Virus record (IMG/VR): IMGVR_UViG_3300049198_000021
Coordinates: 1 to 64,000 of that record
Source of the DNA: a virus
Taxonomy: Duplodnaviria; Caudoviricetes
Strand: one strand, 5' to 3'
DNA length: 64,000 nt
The notes under the pieces were generated by a model, which saw only the letters and a list, made by a program, of their open reading frames with translations, did no database searches and was not told where the DNA came from. Positions 1-11,415 of this stretch are shown one piece after another. Position numbers and translations under genes: made by a program. Numbering within the stretch: position 1 is the stretch's first letter; every line of letters begins with the position of its first letter.

Positions 1-77
1 GGGAAGATTTGCTCCCGATCGGGATCAGAACGACCAGAAACTTCCCGATCGGGAAGATATGCTCCCGAGCGGGATCA
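1..77. repeat. 50-bp-period direct repeat with TCCCGATCGGGA palindromes (probably continues upstream of the window)
   Basis: GGGAAGATTTGCTCCCGATCGGGATCA at 1-27 and GGGAAGATATGCTCCCGAGCGGGATCA at 51-77; CTTCCCGATCGGGAAG at 41-56. Confidence 0.75.
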
Positions 78-106
78 AAAAAAAACACCGACATTGAAAA
101 TAAGTG

Positions 107-135
107 TTGACTCCTGTAGGTTCCTTCCATATACT
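107..135 (+). promoter_or_regulatory. sigma70 promoter for the tRNA cluster
   Basis: TTGACT-17 nt-TATACT with an A-rich UP region. Confidence 0.75.
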
Positions 136-260
136 TCGCAGCATGTTCACACAGACCGCCTTGCAATGCCTTACGGGCACCACGCTATATTGGCATAGCC
201 AGTATAGTTCCCTGTCACCCCTCTAGGGAGCAGCCCTGACGCGCTGCTCCCTCTTCAAGA

Positions 261-358
261 GGAGCGGTGGCAGAGTCTGGGTTATTGCGGCGGTCTCGAA
301 AACCGTTGAACCATCGAGAGATGTTGTTCCGTGGGTTCAAATCCCACTCGCTCCTCCA
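261..358 (+). tRNA. tRNA-Ser(CGA)
   Basis: GGAGCGG/TCGCTCC acceptor, GCGGT-CTCGAAA-ACCGT anticodon arm, long variable arm, TTCAAAT loop, encoded CCA. Confidence 0.9.
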
Positions 359-369
359 GCAGATTTCAT

Positions 370-404
370 GAGCGTCAGAGCCCTCCGGGTTCTGACGCTC
401 TTTT
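370..404 (+). terminator. intrinsic terminator-like hairpin
   Basis: GAGCGTCAGAGCCC-TCC-GGGTTCTGACGCTC followed by TTTT. Confidence 0.7.
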
Positions 405-422
405 CGTTTCATTACAAGTTTC

Positions 423-515
423 GGGTGATCTTCCCCCTGCCGGCCTGTAACCCCGGTGCCGTTTCAGAACGTGGGGGACGGATGGCGAGAGGTTCGAGTC
501 CTCGGTCACCCACCA
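423..515 (+). ncRNA. tRNA-like RNA (8-bp acceptor/4-bp T stem, no D arm, GTA loop)
   Basis: GGGTGATC/GGTCACCC-A-CCA; GAGG-TTCGAGT-CCTC; GCCGG-CCTGTAACC-CCGGT. Confidence 0.65.
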
Positions 516-559
516 TTTTAGGAGAATACCTGTGGATACAGGAGCTTAACAAGAGTTAC

Positions 560-643
560 GTGAGCGTGGCTTCATAGGGAATGGCACACCTTGCCGGCTC
601 AGACCCGGTAGCTTTGGGAGTTCGAGTCTCCCCGCTCACACCA
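560..643 (+). tRNA. atypical tRNA-Leu(CAG)
   Basis: GTGAGCG/CGCTCAC-A-CCA; GCCGG-CTCAGAC-CCGGT; GGGAG-TTCGAGT-CTCCC; expanded 8-9 connector and short variable region. Confidence 0.7.
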
Positions 644-651
644 ACTTAAAT

Positions 652-733
652 CCGCGAATGGCGAAATGGTAAACGCAGCGTCTTGAGAGGGCGTGGCTTT
701 GGCTTCTGGGTTCAAGTCCCAGTTCGCGGACCA
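652..733 (+). tRNA. tRNA-Leu(GAG)
   Basis: CCGCGAA/TTCGCGG-A-CCA; GCGTC-TTGAGAG-GGCGT; variable arm. Confidence 0.9.
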
Positions 734-747
734 ACACAACAAGCCAT

Positions 748-832
748 GGGTGCGTGGCGACAGGGGAATTGGTAGACTCACCGGACTTAAAATTCGGCCG
801 CTTTGTGGGTTCGAGTCCCACCGCACCCACCA
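748..832 (+). tRNA. atypical tRNA-Leu(TAA)
   Basis: GGGTGCG/CGCACCC-A-CCA; CCGGA-CTTAAAA-TTCGG; expanded connector and short variable region. Confidence 0.75.
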
Positions 833-866
833 GATTATTACGCATCTCAGATGCGAGAAGTTCAAT

Positions 867-940
867 GCCGGTTTAGCTCAGTGGTAGAGCAGCGCCTTTG
901 TAACGCGAAGACGGGGGTTCGATTCCCCAATCCGGCTCCA
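867..940 (+). tRNA. tRNA-Thr(TGT)
   Basis: canonical D arm GCTCAGTGGTAGAGC, loop TTTGTAA, TTCGATT, CCA. Confidence 0.85.
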
Positions 941-962
941 GTTAATGTTCCACGGTTTAGGT

Positions 963-1036
963 GTGGCCGAGGCAGAGATGGATGATGCGCCGGCTTGTGA
1001 TGCCGGAGATGGCGGGTTCAAATCCCGCCGGTCACC
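963..1036 (+). tRNA. tRNA-His(GTG), no encoded G-1 or CCA
   Basis: GTGGCCG/CGGTCAC-C; CCGGC-TTGTGAT-GCCGG; GCGGG-TTCAAAT-CCCGC. Confidence 0.85.
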
Positions 1037-1054
1037 CCTAAGCCGTGGAACAAT

Positions 1055-1129
1055 TGCCCGATCGACTAATTGGCAAGTCGCTCGACTCTGAATCCTGAAA
1101 TGTAGGTTCGACCCCTGCTCGGGCATCCA
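1055..1129 (+). tRNA. tRNA-Gln(CTG)
   Basis: TGCCCGA/TCGGGCA-T-CCA; loop CTCTGAA. Confidence 0.85.
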
Positions 1130-1179
1130 ATTATGGAGTTAGTTATGGAAGTTCTTGACGAACAAACTGACCAACCTGA

Positions 1180-1253
1180 TGCCCCTTCGGCTAATGGTAA
1201 GTCAGCGCCCTTTGAAGGCGAAGACGTTGGTTCGATCCCAACAGGGGCATCCA
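1180..1253 (+). tRNA. tRNA-Gln(TTG)
   Basis: TGCCCCT/AGGGGCA-T-CCA; loop CTTTGAA. Confidence 0.9.
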
Positions 1254-1392
1254 AATTAGCGCCGATCCATCGCTGCAAGGTGCAGCGGACCGGCCTGTAT
1301 ACCTTCGTTCTGGTTGAGCCTGATGGCTCCCTGTTCGATGTTGGTGCTGAGATCAATCGCCAGTTCATGGAGGGCGGATGTAACAAGTAAAT

Positions 1393-1468
1393 GCCGTTTG
1401 AGCAAGATGGGACTGCACTCCCTTGGTAGGGGAGAGAAGATTCGGTTCGATTCCGAAAAACGGCTCCA
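1393..1468 (+). tRNA. tRNA-Thr(GGT)
   Basis: GCCGTTT/AAACGGC-T-CCA; CTCCC-TTGGTAG-GGGAG. Confidence 0.85.
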
Positions 1469-1474
1469 ATTAGA

Positions 1475-1562
1475 GGAGGGTGCCGAGGTTGGCTCCTCAA
1501 CTGGCTTGCTAAGCCGGGGTGACCCTTCGGGGTCAGGGGTTCGATGCCTCCACCTTCCTCCA
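1475..1562 (+). tRNA. tRNA-Ser(GCT)
   Basis: GGAGGGT/ACCTTCC-T-CCA; CTGGC-TTGCTAA-GCCGG; variable arm TGACCC-TTCG-GGGTCA. Confidence 0.85.
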
Positions 1563-1569
1563 CAGATCA

Positions 1570-1657
1570 GGAAAGCGCGTGGGTCGGCTCCCTAATCAGC
1601 TTGGAACGCTGTCGTGACCCTTCGGGGTCAGGGGTTCGATGCCCCCGCTTTCCTCCA
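1570..1657 (+). tRNA. tRNA-Ser(GGA)
   Basis: GGAAAGC/GCTTTCC-T-CCA; loop TTGGAAC; variable arm identical to that of Ser(GCT). Confidence 0.85.
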
Positions 1658-1742
1658 CATACGTCGAAGCATATATCCACCCGATAATATATGCTTTGAC
1701 ATATCATGTGAACTGGTTTAGTTCAGATGATATGTCAATCAA

Positions 1743-1828
1743 GCCGCCTTGGCCGAGTCTGGTAAGGCACCCGGTTGCAACCCGGAGGTTCCGAAAGGAC
1801 GCAGGTTCAAATCCTGTGGGCGGCTCCA
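1743..1828 (+). tRNA. tRNA-Cys(GCA) with long variable arm
   Basis: GCCGCCT/GGGCGGC-T-CCA; loop TTGCAAC; extra arm GTTCC-GAAA-GGAC. Confidence 0.85.
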
Positions 1829-1842
1829 GATAATGAGGTGTA

Positions 1843-2178
1843 ATGAACGTAGACGACTTTTATGCTGAGTGCGCTGTGATCCTTGGAGTCCCTCACGAGG
1901 GCGAAGAGTTCACCCACTACAAGCGGACCCGCTGGAACAACCGGCGGCCCGGCCGAGGACGGTTTCCCGGTGCTGGTTTGATCCGCGTGTTCGGCGATGT
2001 CGTCCACATGAATATCCGGTCGCCTGTCATCGTGCAGGTTACCGTCGAAGGTTTGCCCGAGGCGTTGGATTTCCTCCGCGATCGGGTTGGCACTATGGGA
2101 GTGTCGTCTAATGGTAAGACAGCGGATTCCAAACCCGCTGACGTGGGTTCGATTCCTACCTCTCCCGCCACACCCTAA
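1843..2178 (+). CDS. hypothetical protein whose 3' end overlaps tRNA-Trp
   Basis: GAGGTG RBS before ATG; phage-like codon usage in the first ~85 codons. Confidence 0.6.
   Translation: MNVDDFYAECAVILGVPHEGEEFTHYKRTRWNNRRPGRGRFPGAGLIRVFGDVVHMNIRSPVIVQVTVEGLPEALDFLRDRVGTMGVSSNGKTADSKPADVGSIPTSPATP
2097..2170 (+). tRNA. tRNA-Trp(CCA)
   Basis: GGGAGTG/CTCTCCC-G-CCA; loop TTCCAAA; TTCGATT. Confidence 0.9.
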
Positions 2179-2235
2179 ATTTTCAATTGACAATCGTGGG
2201 GTTTTACCTTAACGATGCGTCTCTCAAAAATTTAG

Positions 2236-2826
2236 GTGGAACAACTAATGGAATTTTCTGCTCGCCAGCAAACATTCGGTATCAGCCAGCTACAGCGCTT
2301 GCTTGGTAAGAGTTCGCAAGACGCTGAGCGGTTCGCATCTTACAGCGGCTGGTCCGGGCTCTCCGGGCAGATGGTGACGATTGATGTCGCCGGCGCGCTG
2401 AACATGATGGTTCACTCCACTGCTGCTGACTTCGGTGTCGAACGCAATGTCGTCGGTGCTTGGCTGCCGGGCCTGCGGACCGGGGCGCTTATGGCGCTCG
2501 GTCGGAACGTGGACAACTGGACCTTCAATGGCACCCCCGAAGAGCAGAACCGATTTTTCGCGAGCCTGTTTGGCGAGCAGTCCAAGGTCAACGATTTCGT
2601 CGCCACCACGCTTGGCTGCTATTCCGGCACCGCCAAGCGGCAGATGCGTTTCCACTCGGCTACCGATGTAGAGCTTCTTTCCGAAGCCGAGTTCCAGTCC
2701 GGATACAGTGCGCGGTCGCCTCGGTTCGTGATCGATTCGCGGGCCCTCGCCGATCGTCTGTCGGCCATCCAGCAACCCTTGTTCGTGGCAAGCGTCAAGG
2801 TGGTCTCTTCCTCTCCTTATCTCTGA
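2236..2826 (+). CDS. hypothetical protein
   Basis: 196-aa ORF with an upstream TTGACA promoter (~2188). Confidence 0.65.
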   Translation: MEQLMEFSARQQTFGISQLQRLLGKSSQDAERFASYSGWSGLSGQMVTIDVAGALNMMVHSTAADFGVERNVVGAWLPGLRTGALMALGRNVDNWTFNGTPEEQNRFFASLFGEQSKVNDFVATTLGCYSGTAKRQMRFHSATDVELLSEAEFQSGYSARSPRFVIDSRALADRLSAIQQPLFVASVKVVSSSPYL

Positions 2827-2888
2827 TATTTTTCGGATCGAATAATTTTCAGTTGACAGTGAGGACCGAATCGCTTATCTTCCTCCTC

Positions 2889-3280
2889 GTCAAGTGCTTC
2901 GGCATGAAGACTACGGTCGTAGAAGGCCATCGAAGTTAAGCGAAGACGCGGGGGCAGAGCCCGCCGCCTCCACCAAAGACCCCTGCGGCCGCCTGAAACG
3001 CGGTCAGGGCGACGGCTCGCCGAGATTTAGGACGACGGTCCTGAGTAAGGTAGCGGGGTTCTTTGATGGGGGCGAATTAGGATCGATTCGCAAGGCTGAT
3101 GTGGAGAAGCGCCCCGTTTAGATACCGCTCGTTATGCGGATCAAATTCATCAACTGTCAACGACAATGATGTGGTCGTCGCCCGCGAAGAGATTCGTCTC
3201 GCCGCGTAAGCGACAAAATCCCTAAGGCTTCACTCCCTTAGGTGGCGCGTGGTCCCGAGCGTAGCAACAGTTTCGGGACA
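2889..3280 (+). ncRNA. ssrA: circularly permuted (two-piece) tmRNA, tag (A)VNDNDVVVAREEIRLAA
   Basis: 3' piece first (T arm, CGCCTCC-A-CCA 2965-2975), then 5' end GGGGGCGAA-TTAGGATCGA at 3068 with G3:U70; tag ORF 3156-3209 ending LAA-TAA; promoter TTGACA at 2853; outer ends approximate. Confidence 0.9.
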
Positions 3281-3489
3281 ACATCTTTTTCGCCAACGTC
3301 TCGTCCTACTGTTCTAGGCGGTCGAAAGCGAGGGTCACGGTGAGCGGCCCGGCTGCTATTCTGGTTCGAATCCGGAACGAGAAAGCACCCGGAGGTATCC
3401 GGTCTCTGTGTTCTCAGCCATGGTGGGAAGGCGCGGGCGTCTGGGTTCGAATCCCAGCCTGAACGTCGGGGCGCTGGCGAAAGAGATGT
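3281..3489 (+). ncRNA. structured RNA with ~23-bp closing stem and two T-arm (TTCGAAT) modules; Y RNA/YrlA-like candidate
   Basis: 3281-3303 pairs with 3467-3489; TCTGG-TTCGAAT-CCGGA and CTGGG-TTCGAAT-CCCAG. Confidence 0.6.
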
Positions 3490-3534
3490 GAAAATAGTTC
3501 TTGACGAACCGGACGAATCGTCCTAATGGTTTGT

Positions 3535-3869: not shown

Positions 3870-4316
3870 ATGACTACGATCGCTTACCGCTCGGGCCGCT
3901 TGGCTGCCGACACATTGATCTCCTATACCAGTATCACCAACGGCTCTCGCGAGAAAATCGCAAAGTGCGGTCGATTTACCGTCGCACTTGCGGGTCCCGC
4001 TTGGCTTCGCCGGCCGTTGGAAGCTTGGTGCGCTGACAGTTGCCCTGAGGAAGAGGTTCCTCAAGTGCTACTCGATCATGGTAACGACTTCTCGGCCCTG
4101 ATCATCGACAATACCACCGGAGAACTCTTCGAGTTCGACAACGGATACCTTCTTCCCATTTTTGCCGATTACACCGCAATCGGTTCTGGCGCTCTACTTG
4201 CGCTAGGTGCCATGGCTCATGGAGCCACCGCTGAGGAAGCCGTCGCGGCGGCCTCCAAGCATGATAAGAACACAGGCGGCCCGGTGACCAGCCTGTCCTT
4301 TTCCCTCACAGCATAA
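3870..4316 (+). CDS. HslV/proteasome-beta-like N-terminal Thr peptidase
   Basis: MTTIAY..G.LAADT start, AIGSG motif, A.EAV.AA...D..TGG. Confidence 0.8.
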   Translation: MTTIAYRSGRLAADTLISYTSITNGSREKIAKCGRFTVALAGPAWLRRPLEAWCADSCPEEEVPQVLLDHGNDFSALIIDNTTGELFEFDNGYLLPIFADYTAIGSGALLALGAMAHGATAEEAVAAASKHDKNTGGPVTSLSFSLTA

Positions 4317-7685: not shown

Positions 7686-8927
7686 ATGCGTATCGATCAG
7701 ATTACCGATTCACTGGGTAACAAGAAGCTGGTGAAGCTCTGGGAGCCGAAAGGCTATCCATTCGAGCCCGAAGCTGTCGAGCAGATCAACAACATGGCTC
7801 GCCTCCCATTCGTTTTCAAGCACGTTGCTGTGATGCCTGATGCCCACGCAGGCAAGGGCTCCACCGTGGGGACCGTTTTTGCAACCAAGGGCGCTATCGT
7901 GCCGGCGGCTGTTGGCGTTGACATCGGCTGCGGCATGATGGCCGTCCGCACTTCGCTGACCGCGAGCGATCTTCCGGACAACCTGTCGCACATCCGTGGG
8001 ATGATCGAGGCTGCTGTGCCTCACGGTCGTGGGAACATGGACCAGATTCGTTCTGGCCGTGATCCGGGTTCGTGGGGTAAGCCGACCAAGGACGCAGAAA
8101 TGCGTTGGAAGAAGCTGGCGGACCGCTACGATGCGATCATCGCCAAGCACCCGAAGATCGCTCAGCGTCGCCACCCGGTGCATCACATGGGCACGCTGGG
8201 GACCGGCAACCACTTCATCGAAATCTGTTTGGACGAGGACCAGAACGTCTGGGTCATGCTCCACTCGGGTTCGCGTGGTATCGGCAACTCGATCGGCACC
8301 TACTTCATCGAGAAGGCGAAGCGCGAGATGGAGCGTTACCATATCGCTCAGTATCTGCCGGATGAAGACCTGTCGTATCTGGTTGAGCATACCGAGGTCT
8401 ACGACGATTACGTCGAAGCCGTCGGCTGGGCTCAGGACTTCGCGATGGAGAACCGTCAGACGATGATGGATGCCGTGTTGGGCGTGATGCGCCAGACCCT
8501 GCCGCCGTTCCTGTCCGATCAGATGGCAGTCAACTGCCACCACAATTACGTGACCAAGGAGCAGCATTACGGTGAGGCCGTGCTGGTGACCCGCAAGGGC
8601 GCTGTGCAGGCTCGTGAAGGCACCATGGGGATCATTCCGGGGTCGATGGGCACCGGGAGCTTCATTGTCCGTGGTCTCGGTAACCACCACTCGTTCCACT
8701 CGTGCAGCCATGGGGCTGGGCGCGTGATGAGCCGCACCAAGGCGAAGAAGCTGATCTCGATGGAACAGCACGCCGAGGCGATGAAGGGAATCGAAGCCCG
8801 TTTGGATGAAGACGTGCTGGACGAGAGCCCGGCCGCCTACAAGCCGATCGGGGCTGTGATGGATGCTCAGAGCGATCTCGTCGAGATCGTTCACCGCCTC
8901 CGTCAGGTTCTCAACGTCAAGGGCTGA
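7686..8927 (+). CDS. rtcB: RtcB RNA ligase
   Basis: MPDAHAGKG, VGVDIGCGM, GTLGTGNHF, HSGSRG, HHNY, RKGA, PGSMG, SHGAGR, DESP.AYK motifs. Confidence 0.97.
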   Translation: MRIDQITDSLGNKKLVKLWEPKGYPFEPEAVEQINNMARLPFVFKHVAVMPDAHAGKGSTVGTVFATKGAIVPAAVGVDIGCGMMAVRTSLTASDLPDNLSHIRGMIEAAVPHGRGNMDQIRSGRDPGSWGKPTKDAEMRWKKLADRYDAIIAKHPKIAQRRHPVHHMGTLGTGNHFIEICLDEDQNVWVMLHSGSRGIGNSIGTYFIEKAKREMERYHIAQYLPDEDLSYLVEHTEVYDDYVEAVGWAQDFAMENRQTMMDAVLGVMRQTLPPFLSDQMAVNCHHNYVTKEQHYGEAVLVTRKGAVQAREGTMGIIPGSMGTGSFIVRGLGNHHSFHSCSHGAGRVMSRTKAKKLISMEQHAEAMKGIEARLDEDVLDESPAAYKPIGAVMDAQSDLVEIVHRLRQVLNVKG

Positions 8928-11049: not shown

Positions 11050-11415
11050 ATGTTCCTAATTTATCTGGCGGTGGTGTGCAGCGCCATGTCGTTCCTCACC
11101 GGCATCGTCATTGTTGGCTCCGGTAAGGAGTTCCAATACGAACCCAAACATCTTCTACAGGGACGCCGCGACGCGCTCCTCTACGTCTGGGTGATCTTCT
11201 CGTCGATCTTCGCACTGGCACACTGTGCTTCGTTGATCGAATACGGGATCACAGAAGATTGGCAATATCGATTCAGTGACACCGGGCGTTGGATGGCGAT
11301 CCACTCTGGTGTGGGTGCCCTCCTTACTGCCGCTCACCTGTTCATTCGCCATGATCTTTCAGGTGGTGCTTCTTCACATATTTTCCTTTGGGGTGCGCGT
11401 CGCCATGCCGTCTAG
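11050..11415 (+). CDS. membrane protein (3 TM)
   Basis: hydrophobic segments. Confidence 0.65.
   Translation: MFLIYLAVVCSAMSFLTGIVIVGSGKEFQYEPKHLLQGRRDALLYVWVIFSSIFALAHCASLIEYGITEDWQYRFSDTGRWMAIHSGVGALLTAAHLFIRHDLSGGASSHIFLWGARRHAV

Follow-up and report, generated by a model that had tools for sequence, protein, structure and literature searches.

IMG/VR record IMGVR_UViG_3300049198_000021 is a 176.5-kb virus genome with overlapping ends, and the stretch analyzed here, referred to as the window, comprises its first 64 kb (positions 1 to 64,000). Because the ends of the record overlap, its array of transfer RNA (tRNA) genes continues across the record end into the window; the array comprises at least 27 tRNA genes by Rfam and ARAGORN. 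A sphingomonad is the probable host, since Sphingobium phage Lacusarx and Erythrobacter phage vB_EliS-L02 are the nearest relatives in culture. In two genes of the array, tRNA-Leu(CAG) and tRNA-Leu(UAA), the connector that links the acceptor and D stems is lengthened and can pair with the variable region, forming a candidate fifth helix designated helix X. ARAGORN calls nine tRNAs in the window, and neither of these genes is among them. The genes and their parts, with internal boundaries parsed by hand, are as follows.

560-643, plus strand: tRNA-Leu(CAG) gene read from the sequence, 84 nucleotides (nt), extended connector, A73, encoded CCA
560-566 with 633-639, plus strand: acceptor stem of Leu(CAG); U8 at 567
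568-571, plus strand: 5′ strand of helix X of Leu(CAG), GGCU, in the lengthened connector, pairing with 610-613; unpaired bases at 572-576
577-591, plus strand: D hairpin of Leu(CAG), with a stem of 3 base pairs (bp), GGG/CCU (577-579 with 589-591), and a 9-nt loop (580-588) holding the GG of the elbow contact; N26 at 592
593-609, plus strand: anticodon arm of Leu(CAG), CAG at 600-602
610-613, plus strand: 3′ strand of helix X of Leu(CAG), AGCU, the opening four nt of the variable region; UU at 614-615
616-632, plus strand: T arm of Leu(CAG); A73 at 640 and CCA at 641-643
652-733, plus strand: tRNA-Leu(GAG), an ordinary long-arm cloverleaf with a small arm, between the two odd genes
748-832, plus strand: tRNA-Leu(UAA) gene read from the sequence, 85 nt, extended connector, A73, encoded CCA
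748-754 with 822-828, plus strand: acceptor stem of Leu(UAA); U8 at 755
756-759, plus strand: 5′ strand of helix X of Leu(UAA), GGCG, in the lengthened connector, pairing with 799-802; unpaired bases at 760-762
763-779, plus strand: D hairpin of Leu(UAA), stem GGG/CUC (763-765 with 777-779), 11-nt loop GAAUUGGUAGA (766-776); N26 at 780
781-797, plus strand: anticodon arm of Leu(UAA), UAA at 788-790; C798
799-802, plus strand: 3′ strand of helix X of Leu(UAA), CGCU, within the variable region; UU at 803-804
805-821, plus strand: T arm of Leu(UAA); A73 at 829 and CCA at 830-832

Both genes have a 7-bp acceptor stem, a 5-bp T stem with the T loop TTCGAGT, and a 5-bp anticodon stem closing a 7-nt loop (CUCAGAC in the CAG gene, CUUAAAA in the UAA gene) with U33 and a purine at position 37. 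The D loop of Leu(UAA), which matches that of E. coli tRNA-Leu, agrees with the D loop of the type I Leu(UAA) of T5-like phages at 9 of 11 positions. From acceptor to D stem there are 10 nt in the CAG gene and 8 nt in the UAA gene, compared with 2 nt in the canonical connector (positions 8-9); counted from U8 to the D hairpin the distances are 9 and 7 nt, compared with one normally. A preliminary description of the locus, made from the sequence alone, had given this linker as 8-9 nt, which was right about the lengthening and close on its extent. The variable region measures 6 nt (CAG) and 7 nt (UAA), as that description said, ends in UU in both genes, and holds no class II hairpin arm, which takes at least 10 nt. 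The coordinates and pairings given there also hold, with GGCT 568-571 facing AGCT 610-613 as G:U, G:C, C:G, and U:A and GGCG 756-759 facing CGCU 799-802 as G:U, G:C, C:G, and G:C, and its view of Leu(GAG) as a canonical long-arm tRNA agrees with an ARAGORN call and an Rfam score of 50.2 bits. By comparison, Leu(CAG) has no ARAGORN call and no Rfam match even at E≤10, and Leu(UAA) is missed by ARAGORN and reaches 29.3 bits on the Rfam tRNA model (RF00005; cut-off 29) over 757-825 only, with the wrong ends.

Covariation of helix X in related phages

By a rough estimate, a 4-bp match between segments this short occurs by chance in about one of three single genes, so the case for helix X rests on relatives. 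A homolog search and covariation check, as suggested in the preliminary description, assembled a family of 11 distinct sequences, whose phage or metagenome contigs form at least six groups, namely the clade of the window (L005, L010, L025), L021 with L023, L020, L024, L035, and L032/L033. The tRNA genes of the family range from 36% to 61% GC, the lower value being that of the L032/L033 copy, and all 11 carry a leucine anticodon (CAG, UAA, or UAG), A73, U8, UU preceding the T stem, and the 7-bp acceptor and 5-bp T stems with a TTCRANY T loop. Both odd genes occur in the close relatives L005, L007, L008, L010, L012, and L025; the UAA gene is identical throughout, and the CAG gene varies in D-loop bases and two unpaired connector bases, with L010 also carrying a G:C to C:G exchange in the anticodon stem and keeping the insert. 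In the CAG homologs of L005, L010, L021, L023, and L025, the anticodon and T stems carry compensatory changes, and the UAA gene has diverged orthologs in L021 and L023 and a further copy in L020.

Several routes led to these members. For the L021 and L023 orthologs, metagenomes were scanned with anchors in the anticodon and T arms and no constraint on the variable region. The L020 copy, in a different phage, came from an IMG/VR scan anchored on the 3′ strand of the D stem and the anticodon arm, the UAG version in L024 from a covariance model built on CAG genes, and the L035 (a 220-kb contig) and L032/L033 lineages from a T-arm pattern. The five-helix build was found in phage DNA only, with no match in the 185,579 bacterial and archaeal species genomes of GTDB under two patterns, although the patterns used on IMG/VR, metagenomes, and GTDB fix part of the sequence and members that differ in the D loop or T arm would escape them. 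Among GenBank phages, the CAG-type, L032, and L035 forms all went unmatched.

The L035 member (2498-2581, minus strand) has the anticodon loop CCUAAAC, with C33 for U33, the only such exception in the family, and adjoins four ordinary type I leucine tRNAs (CAA, UAG, GAG, and CAG). Leu(UAA) and Leu(CAA) genes of L022 and L024 were considered as intermediates and not counted, having a 4-nt connector (UGAC), a 5-6-nt variable loop, and only two possible base pairs.

Helix X pairs in 43 of 43 alignment cells across the 11 sequences. The first pair is G:U or G:C, the second always G:C, the third C:G or U:G, and the fourth U:A in six sequences, C:G in four, and G:C in one, meaning that the first base of the variable loop follows connector base 12 perfectly (A-U six times, G-C four times, C-G once). 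The clearest exchange lies in a single array slot, where the UAA ortholog of L021 reads GGUC:GGCC, a change on both sides from G:C to C:G at the fourth pair between the window and L021/L023. The observed pairing was equaled by one of 500 shuffles on a structure-blind MAFFT alignment and by none of 500 on a model-fitted alignment, and slid registers pair in 14-72% of cells (16-72% on the MAFFT alignment). The unpaired connector bases vary freely, as loop bases do (UCAUA, UAGUA, UAAUA, ACA, UUA, ACG, UAA). The acceptor, anticodon, T, and D-hairpin stems also show changes on both sides, with D-hairpin variants GGG:CCU, GGG:CUC, CCG:CGG, and AGA:UCU; 97.7% of 263 cells are paired, and 18 of 24 pairs have changed on both sides.

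Standard gene finders reject both genes, as they would decaying pseudo-tRNAs carrying a junk insertion. That origin is extremely unlikely, since the stems are intact in all 11 sequences, every helix has changes on both sides, and the UAA gene shows 100% identity among contigs in which the CAG gene diverges by up to 8%. The covariation of the helices indicates genes under selection and not decay products. Nor does the insert resemble a known tRNA intron, either the group I type that bacteria have in the anticodon loop or the bulge-helix-bulge type of archaea: it has 6-8 nt and lies between U8 and the D stem, it is too small for self-splicing, and Rfam gives no group I intron match in positions 1-3500.

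Several observations weigh against helix X. It has only 4 bp, three of them nearly invariant, and its covariation amounts to about two both-sided and two one-sided events, none of them inconsistent, for which a rough estimate of chance consistency is about 0.02. Its nearest-neighbor energy is only 0 to -2.5 kcal/mol, a range that does not conflict with the helix, the minimum-free-energy folds of the odd genes differ from the proposed structure, and the L024 member requires either a 1-nt register shift or a C:C mismatch. The D hairpin of the L032 member is weak. In favor of the helix, RNAalifold recovers it on an alignment that had been fitted to the proposed structure. Single-sequence minimum-free-energy folds are not cloverleaf-like even for the canonical Leu(GAG), and z-scores are weak.

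On the structure-blind alignment RNAalifold instead predicts a 3-bp pairing of the connector with the D-loop G18G19Y, which forms in 31 of 32 cells. This prediction and the small computed stability of helix X would suit functional tRNAs in which the insert is floppy or pairs elsewhere, as a pseudoknot or alternative D stem between connector G-C-Y and D-loop G18-G19-Y, with the match to the variable loop due to coincidence or shared ancestry. Such an arrangement appears unlikely. The G18G19Y pairing has zero covariation signal, all 500 shuffles giving the observed value, because one of its sides is the invariant GG; it is broken (G-G) in the UAA gene of the window itself, it would occupy both of the Gs that contact the T loop at the elbow of all tRNAs, and it leaves the perfect tracking of variable-loop base 1 and connector base 12 unexplained. 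It ranks second, after helix X. The helix between connector and variable loop is supported by modest covariation across the relatives, a signal that is real but thin.

A proposed five-helix fold

Both genes probably encode working leucine tRNAs with a five-helix build, a reading to which a probability of about 0.6 is assigned. The acceptor/T stack (7 + 5 bp), the anticodon arm, and the small D hairpin are standard, and the connector after U8 is 6-8 nt longer than usual. Within it, the four bases GGYN are proposed to pair with the first four (NRCY) of the 6-7-nt variable region, the invariant UU following. Ordinary tRNAs have their connector (8-9) and variable loop (44-48) antiparallel to each other in the groove of the D stem, which they contact via base triples; the connector descends from the acceptor/T junction to the base of this stem, and the variable loop returns beside it. 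The lengthened and complementary strands of the odd genes may zip into a short Watson-Crick helix.

The single four-way junction of the cloverleaf would then become two three-way junctions, one joining the acceptor stem, helix X, and the T arm and the other joining helix X, the D hairpin, and the anticodon arm. With a length close to that of a D stem, helix X could leave the L shape and the distance from anticodon to CCA unchanged, and it most likely braces a core that lacks a long variable arm and has just a 3-bp D stem. U8 and the last variable U would flank the top of helix X, with A14, A15, and G18G19 in the loop of the D hairpin, a placement by which U8:A14, 15:48, and the elbow contacts stay possible. 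Either helix X, linked via 0-1 nt, or the D hairpin, linked via N26 as it is ordinarily, may stack on the anticodon stem.

What is new in this architecture is the fifth helix; leucine tRNAs without a long arm are already known from Streptomyces and T5-like phages. Class II tRNA-Leu shares with the window genes the identity features, the D loop of the UAA gene, and, on the side of the core that bears the variable loop, an additional helical element. The class II arm, however, is a projecting hairpin made from nucleotides of the variable region alone, whereas helix X joins two distant strands, each tethered at both ends, and must therefore sit inside the core. Reduced mitochondrial tRNAs, including those lacking the D arm, also have a rebuilt core and altered connector, but these lose elements, whereas the window genes would gain a helix and keep a GG-bearing D hairpin.

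Type I tRNA-Leu, including tRNA-Leu(CAA) of Streptomyces coelicolor (Fan et al. 2019, PMC6614811), mitochondrial forms, and 77-79-nt forms of T5-like and Erythrobacter/Sphingobium-type phages, likewise combines a leucine anticodon, A73, U8/A14, and G18G19 with the lack of a long arm, and over the segment that starts at the D loop and runs to the 3′ end the window UAA gene shares about 80% identity with T5-like Leu(UAA). These tRNAs have a 2-nt connector and a 5-6-nt variable loop unable to form the helix, in contrast to the 8-10-nt pairing connector of the window genes. Sister phages (L002, L009, L015, and L018) carry, in the very slot of the odd genes, type I leucine tRNAs whose connector has 2 nt and whose variable loop has 6, and T5-like phages have such tRNAs as well. 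The arm was accordingly lost, and the helix acquired, in separate events, contrary to the preliminary description, in which the connector pairing replaces the variable arm.

Natural non-canonical tRNAs in the literature include selenocysteine (Sec), pyrrolysine (Pyl), allo-tRNA, and mitochondrial forms (PMC7609411, PMC5389517). Allo-tRNA and tRNA-Sec-like genes (Mukai et al. 2017, PMC5389517; Krahn et al. 2020, PMC7609411) are comparable in being natural non-canonical tRNAs in phage arrays, and 8/4 tRNA-Ser and tRNA-His occur in the tRNA clusters of alphaproteobacterial phages (PMC5389517). They differ in having an 8/4 or 9/3 split of the acceptor and T stems, a long D stem, and a long arm, whereas the window leucine genes have a 7/5 split with changes in the connector and variable loop; the 7/5 stems, the 3-bp D stem, and the absent long arm rule out an 8/4 or 9/3 reading. 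A helix between connector and variable loop is described neither in PMC5389517, the 2020 review (PMC7609411), or the other literature searched nor among the RNA families searched. The preliminary description had supposed a non-canonical tRNA-Leu architecture in which the linker pairs with the variable region, a view supported by the covariation in relatives and by the retained features that the synthetase reads.

Decoding and charging

Leu(CAG) and Leu(UAA) are the only tRNAs of the phage for CUG and UUR, and the only other leucine tRNA that ARAGORN finds in the genome is Leu(GAG), with which they cover five of the six leucine codons. CUG is the commonest leucine codon in long open reading frames of the phage (25.5 per 1000), and UUG and UUA together add 14 per 1000. 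In more distant relatives the slot upstream of Leu(GAG) holds an ordinary Leu(CAG) or Leu(UAG), of type I in L002, L009, L015, and L018 and of type II in Lacusarx and L011. As ordinary leucine tRNAs fill this slot in relatives, the odd genes stand in for normal isoacceptors.

The features read by leucyl-tRNA synthetase (LeuRS) are kept in both genes and in all relatives (leucine anticodon, A73, U8, A14, and G18G19), as are the A14/A15 motif and U at the final variable position. No LeuRS gene was found in the phage genome, for which reason a co-evolved phage enzyme was rejected and charging must fall to the host LeuRS. Under the five-helix proposal the host enzyme would charge both tRNAs, and CUG and UUR would be read by them in phage translation. 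One bacterial LeuRS is known to accept a tRNA-Leu with a short arm, U8:A14 serving as an identity element, but the LeuRS of E. coli is reported to charge long-arm tRNA-Leu only (PMC6614811). Since that enzyme is reported to reject the short-arm form, charging by the host of this phage is an assumption, and this counts against the proposal.

The genes might instead be look-alikes that do not decode and serve as decoys, regulators, or partners of phage proteins, and the phage genome and its relatives do hold several clearly non-standard tRNA-shaped RNAs. Such a role is very unlikely, given full 7-nt anticodon loops with U33 and A37, leucine anticodons kept within lineages, A73 and CCA, an anticodon stem with a compensatory change, the position of the genes in line in the array at a normal isoacceptor slot, and the near-complete coverage of leucine codons together with Leu(GAG).

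Other tRNA-like genes and a possible contest over translation

Several further genes of the window and its relatives have unusual forms. A Tyr(GUA)-like gene at 423-515 (plus strand), missed by ARAGORN, combines an acceptor stem of 8 bp with a T stem of 4 bp, ends in A73-CCA, and lacks a D arm at the usual place; its CCCCC at 433-437 pairs with GGGGG at 473-477 and encloses the anticodon arm. It is conserved in L021 and L023, with a both-sides change in L023 (CCUCC:GGAGG), and is a second rewired tRNA of a long-arm class in the array. ARAGORN also misses two serine genes on the plus strand, Ser(GCU) at 1475-1561 and Ser(GGA) at 1569-1657, whose acceptor and T stems measure 8 and 4 bp and which have U73 and a long variable arm; they fit the 8/4 tRNA-Ser of alphaproteobacterial phage clusters (PMC5389517); Ser(GGA) scores 32 bits on the Rfam tRNA-Sec model. 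At 1743-1828 (plus strand) lies an 86-nt tRNA-Cys(GCA) with U73 and a long variable arm, unusual for cysteine. Beyond the window, the full record holds three tRNA-like stretches with a T arm that ARAGORN does not call (172362-172455, 173685-173836, and 175598-175712), one with a GCCA end, a 9-nt loop that contains CAU, and an extra arm that is very long, and another with a UCCA end and a long-range GGUGAU/AUCACC helix.

In the relatives, L024 carries three 82-nt Arg-like genes on the minus strand (11201-11282, 8598-8679, and 4102-4183), with anticodons ACG, UCU, and CCU and G73-CCA, all missed by ARAGORN; L022 259-341 is grouped with them. Their anticodon arm is enclosed by a helix located after the acceptor, which reads CUCA...UGAG in the third copy and CCCC...GGG otherwise; 3′ of this helix is a loop that contains GG. 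Erythrobacter phage vB_EliS-L02 (L002) has an unannotated tRNA-Leu-like body at 2584-2669 in which a CCGC-GACG-GCGG hairpin with a 4-nt loop replaces the anticodon arm. Escherichia phage EscoHU1 (L003), as do about 280 T5-like phages, encodes a 77-nt short-arm Leu(UAA) (289-365), despite the report of a long-arm-only LeuRS in E. coli (PMC6614811).

Two other features of the window relate to translation.

2849-3280, plus strand: permuted alpha-type transfer-messenger RNA (tmRNA), adjoining and following the tRNA array (Rfam, 88 bits)
7686-8927, plus strand: RtcB RNA ligase gene (Pfam E=6e-124), also beside the tRNA array, about 7 kb from the odd leucine genes

The ligase gene, the tmRNA, and the size of the tRNA array fit a contest over translation, in which a rebuilt core could be a poor substrate for host defenses that cut or inactivate tRNAs and could still be charged; the finding of the five-helix build in phage DNA only, with two patterns applied to GTDB, fits this as well. 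Evasion by phage tRNAs of anticodon nucleases through changes in their loops is documented. The anticodon loops of the odd leucine tRNAs, the usual targets of such nucleases, are nevertheless ordinary, sister phages cope with ordinary type I or type II leucine tRNAs in the same slot, and we know of no nuclease directed at tRNA-Leu in the presumed host. This evasion, which the preliminary description had suggested, is doubtful, although as an addition it is compatible with the five-helix fold.

A broader proposal is that phages of several unrelated lineages use translation-competent tRNAs with a core rebuilt into two three-way junctions and a fifth helix, the leucine genes being one case of rewired long-arm classes, alongside the Tyr-like gene at 423-515 and the three Arg-like genes of L024 with their related long-range helix around the anticodon arm, that are kept to escape host enzymes recognizing the standard core while synthetases and ribosomes accept them; in this general form it is distinctly improbable. 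Because ARAGORN and Rfam miss or mis-end five-helix genes, the tRNA sets of phages are undercounted, and in this phage the sole decoder of the commonest leucine codon would go undetected. If the two tRNAs are charged and decode, bacterial translation would tolerate a five-helix tRNA, and these genes would offer tRNA engineers a natural scaffold with a new building site.
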